Below are positions 22,307 to 38,081 of a stretch of DNA of 64,000 bases, in pieces; position 1 is the first letter of the stretch, and each line of letters begins with the position of its first letter. Below the pieces are notes generated by a model that was given only the letters and a program-made list of their open reading frames with translations, did not search any database and was not told the origin of the DNA. Source of the DNA: an uncultured delta proteobacterium (GTDB lineage Bacteria > Desulfobacterota > RBG-13-43-22); contig CAWBOS010000010.1 of assembly GCA_963790475.1 (NCBI GenBank), positions 480,001 through 544,000 of the forward strand. Direction: 5' to 3'. The position numbers were made by a program, and so were the translations under genes.

Positions 22307-22573
22307 TCACTGTCTTTTATAAATTTGTAAAAATTGACTCCCGAAGATGCCGGTTGGGATCGGACCCTCCAATTGATATTCCCCAAGAAACCATGCCTCC
22401 CGATTCAAAGAATTTTTTATGAAGGCATCCAGGCTAATTAAATAATTGGGTTTGCTAGTCCAAATGAGATTCGGAGGAATAGCAGAATTGATATAGTACA
22501 TGCGCCTGGGGAGAGGATAATAACTTAAGGCTTCGGGGGAGACCAGTAATGAAGTGTTGTTGCTAAATCGCAT
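22307..22573 (-). CDS. Hypothetical protein, probably a C-terminal gene fragment
   Basis: Overlaps the stop of the upstream GT-C gene and reads like the soluble tail of a membrane glycosyltransferase. No family recognised. Confidence 0.35.
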   Translation of the reverse strand: MRFSNNTSLLVSPEALSYYPLPRRMYYINSAIPPNLIWTSKPNYLISLDAFIKNSLNREAWFLGEYQLEGPIPTGIFGSQFLQIYKRQ

Positions 22574-24719
22574 AATCTTTCAGATTGACATCCCAATCTT
22601 TAAGCTGTTTTTCGATCCTTTTTTTCCATTCGGCCTCCCCCAAAGGGACTTTTATGTAGGCGTATATCATCAGCTTAGCGGCTTCGTCGGTTTTACCGGA
22701 TAACATGGCCATGGAGCTAAGATCAAAAAGTTCCTTATAAGTTGTTTCAGGATAAAAGATATCTATGCCCTTTTTTAAAAAATAGTAGGCTTTCCCGTAT
22801 TGGTGTGTCTCAATATAGGCCAGACCTAATGGTTTATAGACTTTAAATTTACTGGGCTCATCCGATTTTTTAATGGCAGTCTTATAAACCAAAATCGATT
22901 CGTCGTAATGTTTCAAACCTCGGAGAGCGTCCCCTTTCAACAGGTAACCATTAGGGTCCTCCGGGAAGTTTTTAATAATCGAATCGGCAAAGGTGAGTGT
23001 TCCACTATAATTCCCTTCCTTGTTAAAAATTGTGGCTAAAATCTGATTGGTCAACGAACAATCGGGAAAAATCTCCCTCATTTTTAACAATTTTTGTTTG
23101 ACTAAGTCTTTATTTTTCAGAGAATCGATGCTGTTATCCACTAATTCAAAAGGGTTTAAATCTCCTAAATCATATTGCACCGCCAGTTCGGGATAATGTT
23201 TTCGATTGAGGTAGAGCACATCGGAATAATCAAAAAAAACCAAGGTAAAGTCAGGGAATTTCTCAATTATTTTTGGAAAATTCTTATTATCATTGGGTAC
23301 CATGATAAAAGATGGATCATATTTTATCAAAAATTTTTTTAGCACATATTCATCATTCCGAGCATTGGTAGACAGAAAAGAGTCTTCGTCTTTAAAAAGA
23401 AAAGGTACTTCCATATCCGAGAAGATTTTATATTTCGGATATAGCATCCATTGTAAATAGCCTCCTTTATTAGGATGATTGAATATCTTACCTTTTGCCG
23501 GAATATAGTTTAAAAAGGTGACCACCCCTTGAGGAAGGTTTAACGTGGAGAAAGGGTACTTGGGTGGGTTGCCGAAATAATTTTTTAAACCGTAAAGTGG
23601 AAACAATAATATAAGACTGACCAGAGGGATCATCAGCCATTTGGTTTTTTTTGCCTGGAGATAAAATGACTGTGATAAAGGACGGATATTGATTAATGGA
23701 AGGGCCAGAAAGACGAATTCATAAGTAAAACGGAGTCCTTTAAAAAGTAATATCACACCACCTAAAAAGATGAAGAGATGGCTTATCCTGATTTTTCTTC
23801 TATTCCAAAGAGTCATTCCCACCGAAAAAATCACAACAAAAAAAATGATATTAAAAAGAGTGGTAGTCATCCGGGGTATTTTGGTGAATTGAAAGGAGAA
23901 AAGCTCATCTAAGCTTAAGGGTTTAAACTCTCTGATATACTGGGAGGCATGAGCAATAGAGCTGGTGGAAACCGTGATTAATTTCGAACCATGAGGGGTG
24001 ATATAGGGAGATCCTAAGGTAATAACTAAAGGAATTACATATAGTAAATCCTTGGGATTTAAATGGGTCTTTTGTCGAATATGGATATAAAAAAATTCGA
24101 GAAGATATCCGATGGTGATTAATAGTATAACCGGATATTCGATACCGTGAAGATTACACCAAAAAATGGCAATGATGGGCAGGAGAAAAACTTTTTGGGG
24201 ATGAAATTCAAGGATATAAAGGAAGAGCACGATGAAGAGGTAGCTAAAGTCATGGGGCCTGATCAATTCAAATCGTGTTAATAAAAAGAACGAATAAAGG
24301 GCGAAAATAATGATCAATGATAGGAGAGAATTTCTTTCCTCCCGGTTTTTGATTAGATATATGAAGATTATAGTTATTGTAGCCAGATAAAGAAAGGTTC
24401 TGAACTGAATAAGACCGTAGTAATCAAAAAGGGAATAGATCAGATAAACAGCCGCTTGAAAAAGCCAGTAATAGTCAACAAACTCCCGGGGAGGATCGAT
24501 GAAGGAGAAGTAACTGGTGTGGGGAAGAGCATGATTATTAAAGATGTATCTCCCGCTATTGAGATGATACCATAAGTCATTGTCAAGGGCTATAATCGGC
24601 CAATTAATAAGATAATAGGAAGCAAGGGATAAGAAAAGTAAGAAATACAAGGTGATTCCGGTCATGGGGTTCAGGTTATTGGGCAGGTGTAATTTAAATG
24701 TTTTAAGGAAGGACATCAT
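22563..24719 (-). CDS. GT-C-type membrane protein with C-terminal TPRs, candidate pilin glycosyltransferase
   Basis: Motifs DNDLWYHLNSGRYI, YYWLFQ, RPH.FS, W.NLHG and IFN....GGYL.W; directly downstream of pilA on the same strand. Confidence 0.75.
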   Translation of the reverse strand: MMSFLKTFKLHLPNNLNPMTGITLYFLLFLSLASYYLINWPIIALDNDLWYHLNSGRYIFNNHALPHTSYFSFIDPPREFVDYYWLFQAAVYLIYSLFDYYGLIQFRTFLYLATITIIFIYLIKNREERNSLLSLIIIFALYSFFLLTRFELIRPHDFSYLFIVLFLYILEFHPQKVFLLPIIAIFWCNLHGIEYPVILLITIGYLLEFFYIHIRQKTHLNPKDLLYVIPLVITLGSPYITPHGSKLITVSTSSIAHASQYIREFKPLSLDELFSFQFTKIPRMTTTLFNIIFFVVIFSVGMTLWNRRKIRISHLFIFLGGVILLFKGLRFTYEFVFLALPLINIRPLSQSFYLQAKKTKWLMIPLVSLILLFPLYGLKNYFGNPPKYPFSTLNLPQGVVTFLNYIPAKGKIFNHPNKGGYLQWMLYPKYKIFSDMEVPFLFKDEDSFLSTNARNDEYVLKKFLIKYDPSFIMVPNDNKNFPKIIEKFPDFTLVFFDYSDVLYLNRKHYPELAVQYDLGDLNPFELVDNSIDSLKNKDLVKQKLLKMREIFPDCSLTNQILATIFNKEGNYSGTLTFADSIIKNFPEDPNGYLLKGDALRGLKHYDESILVYKTAIKKSDEPSKFKVYKPLGLAYIETHQYGKAYYFLKKGIDIFYPETTYKELFDLSSMAMLSGKTDEAAKLMIYAYIKVPLGEAEWKKRIEKQLKDWDVNLKDYAI

Positions 24720-32928: not shown

Positions 32929-34296
32929 TCAACCAAAATTTCCTGACGCTTCCAGGAGCTTTTTCATCATGCATATATTATCGGTGTGCCCGGTGCGCGT
33001 AGCAGTCACCTTTCCCCGAATCGGTCTATTGAGCAGATAAAAATCCCCTATTAAATCCAGAATCTTGTGCCGGGCAAATTCATCGGGAAAGCGGAGTTCG
33101 GTGTTAACCACCTTTTGGTCGTCCACCAAAATGACATTATTAAACCACCCTCCTTCACCCAAACCCAGACGATCAAGCATTTCCATATCCTTCACAAAAC
33201 CGAAGGTTCGGGCCGGTGCGATATTTTTCTTGAATTCTTCCGTGTTATCCAGAACGAAATAGAAGTCCTGTTGGCCGATCGGAGGAGGATAGTCCAGGAA
33301 ATAATGAACGGAAAAGATATCTGCCGGCTCGATGACCAGAGATTTGTCTCCATTCCCAATTTCAAATCGCTGGGCGATCTTCAGCTCTTTTACACGTTCT
33401 TCCTGTTCCTCAATCCCGGCTTCTTCGATCAATTTGCAGAATTCCAGGGCTGAACCATCCATAATGGGGATTTCCTCAATCATTTTCACCATCAGATTCG
33501 TAATCCGGTAAGCGTGAAATACGGCCATCAGGTGTTCGATGGTTTTAGCCACAGCCATCCCCTTCTTCAGCGAAGTGGCCATTTCCGTTGTTTGAACGTA
33601 ATCGACGTGTAAAGGAACCACTTCATCGGAAGAAACGTTTCCAAAGAGGATTCCCCGGTTTGGAGGAAGGGGTTGCAACAATAACCCGGTCTTCATGCCG
33701 GAATGGAGTCCGGTTCCGTATAAGACCATGCTCTTACTCAGGGTTCGCTGAAGGGGAAAAGCGGCCCCTTTTCTCTTGGAGGTCTTAGGTAAAAAGAAGT
33801 CAGCTTCCTGAACCGAAGAAAGGGGAAGCCCGGTGATATCCTCCGTGGACCCTTCGAAGGATCTCCATTTTTCGGTCAGGAGAGTTTCTTCCCTTCCGGC
33901 CTGGGCTGATTTGGGGATCGCCAAGTCCTCCTTCTGACTGCGAATGGCCCGATGGACTGTTTTTAGAAGAACATCGAGGGATAGGGGTTTTTCAATGAAG
34001 TCGAAGGCCCCGAGCTTCACTGCCGCCATGGCCGTGGAGATCGTCGCATGACCGGAAAGCATAATTACCGGACAATTCGGTTCAATCCCCTTCATCCTTT
34101 TTAGTACTTCGATGCCATCCATTCCCGGCATCCAGATGTCCAGGAGCGTCAGGAGAGGAACTTCCTGTTGGAAGATTTCAAGGGCCTCTTCTCCGCTCTT
34201 GGCCGTGGTGAGGTCAAACCCTTCATCATCCAGAACCCCGGTAATAGATTTAATAATTCTCTCCTCATCGTCAACTATGAGGATCTTTTTGCCCAT
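32929..34296 (-). CDS. lpxC: Response-regulator receiver domain fused to UDP-3-O-acyl-GlcNAc deacetylase (LpxC)
   Basis: Residues 1-118 are a receiver (IVDDE, LLDIWMP, MLSGH, FIEKP). From QRTL onward it is LpxC (G.GLHSG, TIEHLMA, EIPIMDGSA, APARTFGF, RFPDEFARHKILDLIGD, GH). Confidence 0.93.
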   Translation of the reverse strand: MGKKILIVDDEERIIKSITGVLDDEGFDLTTAKSGEEALEIFQQEVPLLTLLDIWMPGMDGIEVLKRMKGIEPNCPVIMLSGHATISTAMAAVKLGAFDFIEKPLSLDVLLKTVHRAIRSQKEDLAIPKSAQAGREETLLTEKWRSFEGSTEDITGLPLSSVQEADFFLPKTSKRKGAAFPLQRTLSKSMVLYGTGLHSGMKTGLLLQPLPPNRGILFGNVSSDEVVPLHVDYVQTTEMATSLKKGMAVAKTIEHLMAVFHAYRITNLMVKMIEEIPIMDGSALEFCKLIEEAGIEEQEERVKELKIAQRFEIGNGDKSLVIEPADIFSVHYFLDYPPPIGQQDFYFVLDNTEEFKKNIAPARTFGFVKDMEMLDRLGLGEGGWFNNVILVDDQKVVNTELRFPDEFARHKILDLIGDFYLLNRPIRGKVTATRTGHTDNICMMKKLLEASGNFG

Positions 34297-34388
34297 ATGA
34301 TCACCTTTCCGGGAGGATTAGACGATTGCGCTACCGGATTTTCCTCTTAATCTTCAATCAATGCAGGATATCAAACCTTACTTTATGG

Positions 34389-34417
34389 ATACTATCAGAA
34401 TTAACGTCCAGAGTCAA
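34389..34417 (-). promoter_or_regulatory. Sigma-70 promoter of the receiver-lpxC gene
   Basis: Minus strand TTGACT-17 bp-TAGTAT. Confidence 0.6.
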
Positions 34418-34474
34418 TGAAGACCTCAAACTTGCCTTCTTGACCTTATTTTTGTAAGGAAGCCTTTTTTCCAC

Positions 34475-34503
34475 TTGACCGGCTTATCTCCTTATTTTAT
34501 ATT
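34475..34503 (+). promoter_or_regulatory. Sigma-70 promoter of the acyl-CoA dehydrogenase gene
   Basis: TTGACC-17 bp-TATATT. Confidence 0.55.
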
Positions 34504-36029: not shown

Positions 36030-37052
36030 TCAGTTGATAAAAACTTTGGTGTAGAAGTCGGTTTGCATCAAGGCCTTACCCGCCCCCATAACCACGGAGG
36101 TCAATGGGTCTTCAGCGATATGGACCTTAAGACCGGTTTCCCTTTTCAGGAGTTTATCCAGTCCGTTGAGCAATGCCCCCCCTCCGGCCAGGGTCATCCC
36201 TTCCTGGCTGATATCGCCTGATAATTCGGGAGGAGTTTTTTCCAAGGCCCTTTTCACGGCGTCAACAATGGCCCATATGGGTTCGGCCATCCCTTCCCGA
36301 AGGTCTTTGTCCGTCAGTTGGATGGTTCGAGGGATCCCGGAAAAAACCTCTTTTCCCGACACCTGGAAAGGTATCGGTTTTTGCTGAGGATAGGCCGAAC
36401 CGTAGTCGATCTTAATCTGTTCGGCAGTATTCTCTCCTATCTGTAGATGGAATTTCTTTTGCAGGAAATAAATAACGGATTCATTGAGTTCGTCTCCAGC
36501 CACCCGGATGGACTCACTATAAGCCGTGGAAAACGACATAATGATGGCCACTTCCGTGGTCCCTCCTCCGATGTCCACAATCATATTGGCCCGGGTTGAC
36601 TGGACCGACATGCCGGCTCCAATAGCAGCAGCCATGGGTTCCTCGATAAGGTACACATCCCGTGCTCCTGCTTCCAGGGCCGATTCGACCACGGCCCTTT
36701 TTTCGACCATGGTGATGCCGGACGGGACACCGATGACCAAATTTGGCTTAAAAAAACGGGATTTCCCGCTAACCTTCAAGAGGAAAAATTTAATCATTTC
36801 TCGGGTAATCTCGAAGTCGGCGATTACGCCGTCTTTCAGGGGACGAATCGCGGAAATACGGGCCGGGGTCCGGCCTAAATAGTCCTTGGCCTCTTTCCCG
36901 ACGGCCAGAACCTGGCCGGTTTCATTATTGATGGCCACGACGGAGGGTTCGTTAAGAACCACCCCTTGATTTTTTTTAAAGATTAAAGTATTAGCCGTTC
37001 CCAGATCCATGGCCATATCTTCGGAAAAGAGGCCGAAAAATTTTCTGATCAT
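36030..37052 (-). CDS. mreB: Rod shape-determining protein MreB
   Basis: Motifs DLGTANT, EPSVVA, IRPLKDGVIADF, EEPMAAAIGAG, DIGGGTTEVA and LAGGGALL. Confidence 0.96.
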   Translation of the reverse strand: MIRKFFGLFSEDMAMDLGTANTLIFKKNQGVVLNEPSVVAINNETGQVLAVGKEAKDYLGRTPARISAIRPLKDGVIADFEITREMIKFFLLKVSGKSRFFKPNLVIGVPSGITMVEKRAVVESALEAGARDVYLIEEPMAAAIGAGMSVQSTRANMIVDIGGGTTEVAIIMSFSTAYSESIRVAGDELNESVIYFLQKKFHLQIGENTAEQIKIDYGSAYPQQKPIPFQVSGKEVFSGIPRTIQLTDKDLREGMAEPIWAIVDAVKRALEKTPPELSGDISQEGMTLAGGGALLNGLDKLLKRETGLKVHIAEDPLTSVVMGAGKALMQTDFYTKVFIN

Positions 37053-37064
37053 AGTTTTTTAAAC

Positions 37065-38081
37065 TCACAGATTCATTAAATAAAGTATTGAGGTGATGAT
37101 GGTCTGGCCGGCCGAGGTCAAGGCTTGAATTTCTTCTTCCCTCCAATCATTTTCCCGGTGGCCGATCAAATTCATTACCCCATATAAATTACCGAAAAAA
37201 CATAGGGGAAGACCGATGTAAGATTGGAAGTGCGTACAGGGGTCATCGGGGTAAAAGACATACGATTTGTGGTTCCTCGGTTTCATCGAACGCCGCACCA
37301 GAGGTTTTTCTTCCCGGATGACCCAGCCGGTTAACCCCATATCAATAGAATGGAAGGTTTTTTTCAAGGGGCCCTGCAAGGTTCCATCCGAGGCGACCAC
37401 CTTGTACCGATCCCTCTTCCTGGGAACCAGGGCTAAAAAGGCGGCGTCCGTCCTGGAAAATAAACGGCAACAGTTAAGGGCTTTCAAATAATATTGATTG
37501 ACATCCTGTTTTTCCATGGAAAGGCTGTTGATGTCATTAAAAAATCCCAGAATATGATGCTGATCCCTTTCTTTTTTTCCAACATCTTGGGCGTGAAGGA
37601 TATGAAGGACCAGCAAAGAGAAGTCGTGTAATATTTTCTGGTCTTTATCGGTAAAAACATAGTTTCGTTTGCTGTCAATACACAGGACACCGACCTCTCC
37701 CACGGGAACTGCTAAAAAGGATTTTATCTTTTCGTCCCGCAGATACAGTTTTAAATTTCGGGTATCACGATCGAATTGAGAGATATTGACCGGGCGTTGG
37801 TTTTTGGCCACCCAGCCGATCAGGCTGTCTCCCACCTGGAGTTGGGTATCCGGGTCAATATGAAGACTCAGGCTGTGATAACTTCTGAGATTCAGTTTGT
37901 TCCTGGCGGAATCAAGCAGGAAAAGGGCTGTCGTAAAAGAGTCGGTTACATTACTGATGAGCTGTATTATTTCCTTTAATCCATAATCGGTGACAGTTTC
38001 CATCTGAACGGGAAAAGGCTTCTTAATAAATGGATTATCATCCATCGCATAATATGCTATGTTAAAAAAAATTTGATTCAC
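37065..38081 (-). CDS. Stand-alone tandem GAF domain protein (true start probably further in, 38045 or 38003)
   Basis: Two GAF-like repeats: LIGWVAK..P..I.KSFLAVPV..GVLCIDS and GLTGWVI..P..SYIGLPL..GVM.L. No output domain. Confidence 0.8.
   Translation of the reverse strand: MNQIFFNIAYYAMDDNPFIKKPFPVQMETVTDYGLKEIIQLISNVTDSFTTALFLLDSARNKLNLRSYHSLSLHIDPDTQLQVGDSLIGWVAKNQRPVNISQFDRDTRNLKLYLRDEKIKSFLAVPVGEVGVLCIDSKRNYVFTDKDQKILHDFSLLVLHILHAQDVGKKERDQHHILGFFNDINSLSMEKQDVNQYYLKALNCCRLFSRTDAAFLALVPRKRDRYKVVASDGTLQGPLKKTFHSIDMGLTGWVIREEKPLVRRSMKPRNHKSYVFYPDDPCTHFQSYIGLPLCFFGNLYGVMNLIGHRENDWREEEIQALTSAGQTIITSILYLMNL

Follow-up and report, generated by a model that had tools for sequence, protein, structure and literature searches.

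An NtrX-type receiver built into LpxC points to probable control of outer-membrane lipid synthesis by NtrY at the enzyme itself

The window analysed here, a stretch of 64,000 nucleotides from an uncultured delta proteobacterium, carries on its minus strand a gene (32929..34296, stop codon included) for a 455-aa protein in which a response regulator receiver, a linker and the deacetylase LpxC follow one another, as read from the ORF list, the sequence itself and Pfam and NCBIfam matches. Pfam places Response_reg at residues 5-114 (E 2.5e-30) and LpxC at residues 183-448 (E 8.2e-83), and this fusion ORF is a real feature of the locus. The original prediction, that an intact receiver is joined to a complete LpxC in one ORF, is borne out by the Pfam and NCBIfam matches and by the motifs it named, which lie where it had placed them; the linker, which it put at about 60 residues, comes to about 55. 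Its observation that no histidine kinase lies nearby also stands, since HisKA and HATPase_c are found in none of the 18 ORFs lying from 19.4 to 48.6 kb in the window. The sequence directly 5′ of the ATG reads as a Shine-Dalgarno-like AAGGTGA (34301..34308, minus strand). The further claim that the gene has its own sigma-70-like promoter did not hold up: the scan returned one weak site, TTGACT-17-TAGTAT (9/12; 34389..34417, minus strand), and sigma-70-like sites are no commoner (3 found) than in shuffled sequence (2.5 +/- 1.7).

The receiver (residues 1-123; 33928..34296, minus strand) is of the NtrX/NtrC type. Its assignment draws on PF00072, NCBIfam, invariant residues and an AlphaFold2 model of the (beta-alpha)5 fold, with five strand-helix units at a pLDDT of about 85-95. 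D9-D10, the predicted phospho-acceptor D53 (codon 34138..34140, minus strand) within LDIW (52-55), SGH (81-83) and EKP (102-104) were all located, so that the acidic pocket, phospho-acceptor aspartate, Ser/Thr, Lys and fold of a receiver are each in place. D9, D10, D53, S81, K103 and P104 do not vary in either alignment of fused relatives (44/44, and 65/65 members down to 39% identity). NtrX is the top NCBIfam match of the receiver (125 bits), RssB is also among these matches, and the best matches among solved structures are 4d6x and 5m7n, both of which we take to be Brucella NtrX. In the sister genus the best match of the window receiver is an NtrY-adjacent regulator, at 52-53% identity and 118-120 bits compared with 94 for the next match, in line with the NtrX likeness noted in the original prediction. 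The 125 bits come from the receiver alone and fall far short of the 600-bit cut-off of the NtrX equivalog NF051870. The window protein has neither AAA+ nor HTH, and hence lacks both the NtrX layout (receiver, AAA+ without GAFTGA, C-terminal HTH) and the GAFTGA and Walker B elements by which the AAA+ domain of sigma-54 enhancer-binding proteins is recognised. We conclude that the receiver at the N-terminus is derived from NtrX, which partners the sensor kinase NtrY. The fused LpxC shares its receiver type with NtrX of the NtrY/NtrX (PlrS/PlrR) system, but the output is an enzyme rather than a DNA-binding domain.

The LpxC (UDP-3-O-acyl-GlcNAc deacetylase) domain spans residues 179-452 (32941..33762, minus strand). 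It covers model positions 1-267 of 268 in PF03331 (278 bits vs a cut-off of 27), exceeds the cut-off of TIGR00325 lpxC (247.8 bits vs 187), aligns with solved LpxC structures at an E of about 1e-52 and is modelled with a confident fold. The motifs EH (254-255), HKILD (410-414) and GH (436-437) are present, and E254, H255, T364, H410, K411, D414, D418 and H437 align with solved LpxC and are invariant or nearly so in relatives. The E254-H255 pair (33532..33537, minus strand), which matches a conserved E-H pair in the solved chains, and H410-K411-x-x-D414-x-x-x-D418 within HKILDLIGD (33043..33069, minus strand) are invariant in 44/44, and H437 (32986..32988, minus strand), aligned with the conserved G-H histidine, is invariant in alignments A1 and A2. 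In E. coli LpxC we take H79, H238 and D242 to be the zinc ligands and E78, H265, T191, K239 and D246 to be catalytic; on this assumption E254 would be the catalytic glutamate, H255 the first zinc ligand, the HKILDLIGD residues zinc ligands and catalytic-site residues, and H437 the second catalytic histidine. The domain is complete and is a predicted deacetylase. The second-best NCBIfam match, the LpxC-FabZ bifunctional protein NF009667 (198 of the 465 bits needed), likewise has LpxC within a two-domain protein, but there the partner is metabolic, FabZ at the C-terminus, whereas here it is a signalling domain at the N-terminus.

Between the two domains, the linker (residues 124-178; 33763..33927, minus strand) has a pLDDT <50 throughout in the AlphaFold2 model and a column identity of 0.02-0.26 in the alignment of relatives, and its length is no more conserved than its sequence. 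The idea that it is a remnant of AAA+ or HTH was rejected, since it has no Pfam match at E<=10 and its sequence is unconserved. A linker that is both unconserved and disordered offers no evident rigid path for allostery. Complex prediction of the receiver (1-122) with LpxC (181-455), using alignment A2, scored 0.01 against a mark of 0.32, which speaks neither for nor against an interface.

Whether the fusion extends beyond this assembly, a question raised with the original prediction, is answered by a 928-nt contig from another study that spans early LpxC, linker and receiver, and the fusion is not an assembly artefact. The best two DNA sequencing runs contain 0.38 and 0.24 of the sequence words, their contigs being short and of low depth; no RNA run was among those listed for the sequence. 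Both domains are present in all of the best 120 protein clusters, and the fused type was found in 101/401 sampled genomes of the host's phylum (about a quarter; receiver directly confirmed in 52 of the 101), in 97 of which it is the only PF03331 match. Among Atlas clusters with both domains, the commonest phylum is Binatota or Acidobacteriota for some. In our first tree the fused LpxCs make up one side of a branch (support 100, starred) against 45 stand-alone LpxCs, including ones from the same phylum, and the corresponding branch in the second tree has a starred support of 99. In the second tree, 4 of the 16 short representatives classed as 'stand-alone' group with the fused clade; they may be fragments or cases of receiver loss. 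The trees indicate that all receiver-fused LpxCs form one clade, apart from ordinary LpxC, with a single origin. The matches listed by a related-locus search of genome contigs were mostly stand-alone LpxC, and the one apparent full-length fusion among them, L059 in Nitrospirae, was rejected, as lpxC there is a gene of its own that comes after one for a NarL-type regulator.

Some members of the clade are longer, having first a degenerate sigma-54 AAA+ domain and then an HTH remnant between receiver and LpxC. The six long forms inspected retain Walker A, have lost the Walker B acidic pair and have no GAFTGA; HTH_8 is detected in long forms below threshold. The top NCBIfam match of long relatives is NtrX over the whole model (255-347 bits, below the 600 cut-off), and some are named NtrX by JGI. 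All 20 long forms lie in one 25-row subclade of the second tree (support 86, not starred); short forms arise there again, on at least 4 occasions, which shows repeated loss of AAA+. A 'long form first' history was not sustained, as short, ntrY-linked forms are basal in this tree. Two short AAA-lid+LpxC proteins (P0195 and P0224) were set aside as apparently mis-called starts of long forms.

Just two LpxC matches were found in the host genome, each with a fused receiver; there is no stand-alone lpxC, which settles a check proposed with the original prediction. With lpxA, lpxB and lpxK also present and the fused genes as the only LpxC matches, the fused type can be assigned to the host's lipid A pathway. 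In three genomes a second, divergent receiver-LpxC paralogue occurs alongside another LpxC. A single NtrY orthologue is encoded elsewhere in the host genome (G000:C12:823900-826131; E 1.4e-193, next kinase 1e-32), with the gene for its periplasmic helper DUF4390 (PlrP) before it, that for NAD kinase after it and no regulator gene adjoining, and no protein of the genome reaches the NtrX cut-off. Since the fused gene has no kinase neighbour in the host, the assignment of its partner rests on orthology and on this orphan kinase. Another host receiver (C13:140579) is 50% identical to the fused one, so that cross-talk or another kinase is possible. A LapB marker (Zn_ribbon_LapB, 28 positions) was dropped as unspecific, matching 10/14 control genomes and 5/5 genomes tried.

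The position typical of NtrX, directly downstream of ntrY, is absent in the window and is seen in 11 related loci: in 10/18 type-1 loci with 5-kb flanks, and also in L031, the gene immediately upstream, in the same orientation, encodes a full-length NtrY-type kinase. At the locus that holds the orphan DUF4390-ntrY pair in the host, the gene order in the sister genus is lpxC-DUF4390-ntrY-activator-ppnK, with a sigma-54 promoter before lpxC; DUF4390/PlrP also precedes ntrY in beta-proteobacteria, according to excerpts of a report on PlrS/PlrR (PMC13001219). Stand-alone lpxC is clustered with ntrY in 8/79 unrelated loci from three phyla, and the sigma-54 promoter consensus occurs before lpxC in 7/11 cluster loci vs 0/20 fused genes. 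Published work, in the parts drawn on here, links NtrYX functionally to lpxC mRNA and LPS level (PMC7240162, PMC12444477); loss of NtrYX raised lpxC mRNA 8.8-fold in R. sphaeroides (PMC7240162). In the host's own phylum, lpxC is given in the portion of the study used here as the single mapped target of the D. vulgaris sigma-54-type regulator DVU2934 (Rajeev 2011, PMC3333781). This two-component regulator, which accords with the sigma-54 sites before clustered stand-alone lpxC, resembles the present case in target and phylum, but it exerts transcriptional control through separate proteins, whereas here the receiver is built in. In our reading, control of lpxC by NtrY has moved from transcription onto the enzyme itself.

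LpxC catalyses the committed step that sets the amount of lipid A in Gram-negative bacteria, is essential in most of them and is an antibiotic target. The sections consulted of a 2025 review describe FtsH/LapB proteolysis in enterobacteria, activation by MurA in P. aeruginosa and transcriptional control by NtrYX and ChvGI in alpha-proteobacteria, and name the regulation of LpxC beyond a few proteobacteria as an open question (PMC12444477). By these accounts, all such systems share with the fused LpxC the same target and the same logic, in which lipid A flux is adjusted to the state of the envelope; the difference is that the regulatory input is here built into the LpxC polypeptide. The words 'fused', 'fusion', 'receiver' and 'response regulator' are absent from the text of this review (PMC12444477), and we found no description of a receiver-LpxC fusion in the literature searched, in keeping with the suggestion in the original prediction that this control mode had not been characterised. 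A two-component receiver built into LpxC is probably a control mode not yet described, and a variant of the receiver-enzyme regulators. Among these, CheB (receiver and methylesterase), PleD/WspR and RpfG (receiver and cyclase or phosphodiesterase) have the same order of N-terminal receiver, flexible linker and catalytic domain; phosphorylation relieves occlusion in CheB and drives dimerisation in PleD and WspR. Those proteins are signalling enzymes, whereas the catalytic domain here is a zinc deacetylase and belongs to a biosynthetic pathway that is essential.

The receiver of the NtrX type carried by LpxC makes it probable that NtrY controls the synthesis of outer-membrane lipid by acting on the enzyme itself. 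In the circuit that we consider likely, the orphan NtrY, helped by DUF4390/PlrP, would phosphorylate D53; the phosphorylated receiver would alter its surface and pairing, and across the floppy 55-aa linker this change would affect the catalytic availability or the lifetime of LpxC and so set the flow into lipid A. We infer D53 phosphorylation from the adjacency of ntrY in relatives and from the orphan NtrY of the host; its effect on LpxC, whether up or down, is likewise inferred. Because LpxC is normally essential, such control could not be a simple on/off switch. On a broader proposal, for which we see the case as evenly poised, NtrY/NtrX is at root a governor of lipid A, with lpxC either sigma-54-driven in ntrY clusters or receiver-fused across several phyla; in the present lineage, NtrY phosphorylating the receiver of LpxC would then switch the committed step post-translationally. 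What is gained is a whole LpxC clade with a receiver, the sole LpxC for most of its genomes, a probable kinase in NtrY with its helper DUF4390/PlrP, and a connection between the fusion, the clustering of lpxC with ntrY behind a sigma-54 promoter and the published effects of NtrYX on lpxC. If the broader proposal is true, LpxC control would gain one more paradigm, next to proteolysis through FtsH/LapB and activation by MurA, and it would offer an explanation of how NtrYX indirectly affects lpxC in alpha-proteobacteria, which is so far unexplained. The fusion also bears on the purpose of NtrYX and on the way in which bacteria other than enterics adjust their lipid A.

The same architecture could be read in other ways. 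The phosphorylated receiver might serve as a conditional degradation or localisation tag, through which a protease or membrane partner handles LpxC differently while catalysis is untouched. Such a tag would be the two-component counterpart of the way in which regulated proteolysis controls LpxC in E. coli, and the reading draws on the excerpted account of LpxC amount being set by proteolysis in enterobacteria (PMC12444477), on the existence of single-domain and receiver-fused protease adaptors (RssB being among the receiver matches) and on a floppy, unconserved linker, which fits a tag better than tight allostery. One relative (L040) does have an FtsH gene at a distance of 3 kb from the fusion, but it is a single case, and no conserved protease or adaptor gene stands beside the fusion among 20 loci; we consider a tag rather unlikely. 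A receiver that survives as a relic for the sake of folding, dimerisation or solubility, no longer phosphorylated and leaving LpxC constitutive, would suit the lost kinase neighbour of the window gene and the AAA+ and HTH that are clearly decayed or deleted in the fused family. We judge this reading very improbable, since the phospho-site residues and P104 remain invariant in all 65 relatives while the adjacent linker varies, the host keeps ntrY without any other adjacent partner, and ntrY adjacency is retained in many lineages.

The direction of signalling might also be reversed or two-way, LpxC reporting substrate or product load to a receiver that acts as a phosphate sink for NtrY or as a feedback sensor and, in long forms, tuning DNA binding. 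Long forms could still bind DNA through their HTH remnant, and the divergent paralogue that accompanies another LpxC in three genomes would suit a sensor role, but the short form has no DNA-binding part and no precedent was found in the material examined, so that we give this reading scarcely any weight. Most genomes have no LpxC type other than the short form, and all of the conserved active-site residues checked are retained in it, which argues that the fused protein is an enzyme first.

The open reading frame at window 32929..34296 (minus strand), which starts with an ATG after an AAGGTGA run, encodes a 455-aa protein in which a receiver (Pfam Response_reg, residues 5-114, E 2.5e-30) is joined to LpxC (Pfam, residues 183-448, E 8.2e-83), as the original prediction, which left the strand unstated, had correctly described. 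The protein scores 247.8 bits against the NCBIfam lpxC equivalog TIGR00325 (cut-off 187), and structure-sequence comparison matches its C-terminal part to solved LpxC chains (E about 1e-52), with the conserved E-H, T-F, HKxLDxxGD and G-H positions all aligned. The top solved matches to the receiver are 4d6x and 5m7n, which we take to be Brucella NtrX, and NtrX is also its top NCBIfam match (125 bits), in agreement with the predicted NtrX-type likeness. An AlphaFold2 model (mean pLDDT 81.2, pTM 0.76) based on a 65-sequence alignment contains two confident domains, with residues 124-178 disordered. Judged by its residues, the protein is shown to be a catalytically complete LpxC tethered to a predicted phosphorylatable NtrX-type receiver.

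This architecture is genuine, conserved and widespread, and an assembly artefact is ruled out. Both domains are present in every one of the 120 top clusters (69-100% identity) from a search of 5.8 billion proteins, and a 928-nt contig from another study, spanning window 33616-34500 (early LpxC, linker and receiver), places the fusion beyond this assembly. At 50% clustering, 21 short fused forms (receiver, linker and LpxC) and 15 long ones are among the 150 top-ranking representatives out of 1.84 billion. In the ESM Atlas, 17 clusters of at least 50 members carry both domains; for the top three, the most frequent phyla are Thermodesulfobacteriota, Candidatus Binatota and Acidobacteriota. Within a sample of 401 genomes of the phylum, the window's own included, a close relative of the window LpxC (E <= 7e-80) is present in 101. 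The receiver was directly checked in 52 of these relatives; the match is full-length in 34, is cut by a contig end in one more, and Pfam detects an N-terminal receiver in 17 of 17 further relatives. The remaining 49 all lie in open frames of at least 401 aa except that of G304 (277 aa). At window 33777-33944 a related organism's contig (run X3, record 20) skips 166 nt within the linker region, which is consistent with a linker of varying length, although 166 is not divisible by three.

The fused protein is this cell's LpxC. The genome (6.34 Mb, 100% complete, 9.7% contamination) also contains lpxA, lpxB and lpxK, and a search for a stand-alone lpxC found none, since its only two PF03331 matches, both on contig C10, are receiver-fused. 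The second, outside the window (C10:1766992-1768317; L002:1033-2358, plus strand; 441 aa), belongs to a divergent type 2, about 40% identical to the window protein, that occurs in three genomes (G000, the window's own, G312 and G034), each time beside another LpxC; type 2 may be a spare enzyme, act on another substrate or serve as a sensor. A single LpxC match was found by the PF03331 scan in 97 of the 101 genomes, the exceptions being G000, G199, G258 and G074.

In a 76-row tree of LpxC domains, all 31 fused forms fall on one side of a branch with support 100 and 45 stand-alone LpxCs from many phyla, including same-phylum proteins from Desulfobacula and Desulfonema, on the other. A second tree of receiver plus LpxC (50%-identity representatives) gave a branch with support 99, and placed four of 16 short 'stand-alone' representatives, which may be fragments or secondary losses, inside the fused clade. 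The trees show a single origin of the fusion. The long forms of some relatives (~709-745 aa) carry a Sigma54_activat AAA+ domain and AAA lid between receiver and LpxC; in the six inspected, Walker A is retained, the acidic pair of Walker B has been lost and there is no GAFTGA, and five have a Fis-type HTH remnant (the one tested, in L033, matches HTH_8 with E 0.0015 and 18.7 bits, under the cut-off of 22). The N-terminal parts of three long forms have NtrX as top NCBIfam match over the whole model (255-347 bits, under the 600 cut-off), and JGI names for long-form relatives are 'response regulator NtrX' for several and LpxC for others. With a long-form query, the long architecture makes up most of the best 120 clusters. 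The second tree gathers all 20 long forms into a single 25-row subclade. Within it, short forms recur at least four times, strongly supported, and so the AAA+/HTH part was lost repeatedly.

Receiver residues D9, D10, D53 (the predicted phospho-acceptor), S81, K103 and P104 and LpxC residues E254, H255, H410, K411, D414 and D418 are invariant in 44 short forms, as they are, together with H437, in 24- and 65-sequence alignments. Column identity in the linker of the 44 short forms is 0.02-0.26. A strictly conserved phospho-site next to a linker that varies freely speaks for a functional receiver.

The window gene converges with purC and diverges from an acyl-CoA dehydrogenase gene, and none of the 18 ORFs between 19.4 and 48.6 kb encodes a kinase domain, bearing out the expectation that no histidine kinase lies nearby. 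The proposed sigma-70-like promoter fared less well: one site exists ~90 nt before the gene, but the frequency of such sites does not exceed that in shuffled sequence. Of 18 window-like loci with 5-kb flanks, 10 encode a full-length NtrY-type kinase (NtrY_N, HAMP, PAS, HisKA and HATPase_c) immediately upstream and on the same strand, seven lack it and one ends too early; among 29 loci with 1.5-kb flanks, it is seen in L031 alone. In L034, ntrY is preceded by a gene for DUF4390/PlrP, which genetic evidence identifies as a periplasmic third component of NtrYX-family systems in a 2026 study whose text does not mention LpxC (PMC13001219). The own genome has one NtrY orthologue (C12:823900-826131), 43% identical over its full length to an NtrY preceding a fused LpxC (E 1.4e-193; next kinase 1e-32). 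At C12:823275-826131 (L142:5276-8132) a PlrP-like DUF4390 gene is followed by ntrY and directly by the NAD kinase gene, with no adjacent response regulator; this DUF4390-ntrY-ppnK order recurs in a second genome of the genus. No own-genome protein reaches the NtrX equivalog cut-off (top score 397 of 600 bits). Within this genome, the next-best matches to the window receiver are at C13:140579 (50% identity), which lacks the DEGF/LDIW/SGH signature, and in the type-2 paralogue (47%). At C13:138355-142041 (L138) a kinase gene precedes the 50%-identical receiver, which continues, through apparent frame changes, into sequence resembling PAS and kinase domains; a hybrid kinase or a disrupted gene may lie here.

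In three of three sister-genus genomes, the NtrY orthologue has a stand-alone lpxC next to it and an activator after it. The locus seen in full (L147, genome G360) reads lpxC (295 aa)-DUF4390-ntrY-activator (472 aa)-ppnK, and the sister-genus activator is a receiver-AAA+-HTH protein with GAFTGA and Walker B intact. This NtrY-adjacent activator is the top match of the window receiver in two of these genomes (52-53% identity, 118-120 bits; next 94 bits). In the window's genus the ntrY locus retains neither lpxC nor the activator, and tblastn at 1e-3 found no remnant of either there. Across many phyla, ntrY is directly downstream of lpxC on the same strand in eight of 79 stand-alone loci (Desulfobacula, Desulfonema magnum, Geopsychrobacteraceae, two 'delta' MAGs, Ca. 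Acidoferrum, Thermoanaerobaculia and Rokuibacteriota); in the majority, the cluster also includes DUF4390 and an activator. A near-perfect sigma-54 -24/-12 consensus (TGGCAC-N5-TTGCA, 10 or 11 of 11 fixed bases) stands just before the stand-alone lpxC in seven of 11 cluster loci (L147, L148, L149, L071, L090, L091 and L095), the 11 including three sister-genus loci that represent one lineage; the background over all loci is 6.2 sites per Mb, or ~0.04 expected in the 5.9 kb scanned. This suggests that an NtrY-dependent sigma-54 promoter for lpxC is conserved in lpxC-DUF4390-ntrY-activator clusters of several phyla. For 20 fused genes, the 400 nt upstream contain no sigma-54 site (at least 9 of 11 bases), and none was found upstream of the window gene (within 500 nt), the own type-2 gene or the own DUF4390-ntrY pair. 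A NarL-type response regulator gene immediately precedes a stand-alone lpxC in a Nitrospirae MAG (L059, 3426-5580), the two genes being adjacent but unfused.

Sigma-54 and AAA+ features are lost where the fusion exists, the fused gene is ntrY-linked in relatives, and the own genome has an orphan NtrY. Receiver-enzyme regulators such as CheB and PleD offer a model for receiver control of LpxC, and the receiver-LpxC joins the receiver-enzyme response regulators as a putative new form. NtrY would phosphorylate D53 of the fused receiver, which would alter LpxC activity, our preference, or stability. The long, unconserved linker suggests coupling by domain docking or pairing over a rigid relay. In the simplest history, the fused clade would have transferred to the protein itself a control of lpxC by NtrY that works through a sigma-54 activator in some lineages. 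The original idea of receiver control over LpxC is supported and extended, with NtrY as named candidate kinase, and we regard the full circuit, including phosphotransfer and its effect, as probable.

Transcriptional links between these systems have been reported: NtrYX loss in R. sphaeroides indirectly raises lpxC mRNA 8.8-fold and also LPS (PMC7240162); lpxC is listed among ChvI-dependent genes in a Caulobacter ChvGI/NtrYX preprint (10.1101/2021.04.17.440287); and lpxC is the single mapped target of the D. vulgaris regulator DVU2934 (PMC3333781; also PMC4114195, 10.1101/2021.11.05.467447), the S. fumaroxidans lpxC adjoining the orthologous regulator operon according to the authors (PMC3333781). 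A review from 2025 on how lipid A is regulated describes effects of NtrYX and ChvGI on transcription; the terms 'fused', 'fusion', 'receiver' and 'response regulator' do not occur in its text (PMC12444477). We found no description of a receiver-LpxC fusion in the freely accessible main texts searched.

Envelope genes were seen near fused lpxC in other loci. In two relatives (L041:3210-4531 and L046:3224-3994, family f47) it is divergent from genes for Pal-like OmpA and CpoB/YbgF-like TPR proteins, a Tol-Pal neighbourhood, and, as single cases, tamB lies downstream in L039 and ftsH 3 kb away in L040. Elsewhere in the window, a 718-aa ORF (22563-24719, minus strand) has no Pfam family at E<=1e-5, and a 338-aa protein with two GAF domains (37065-38081, minus strand), encoded directly upstream of mreB (36030-37052, minus strand), may sense small molecules as a partner of the cell-shape machinery.
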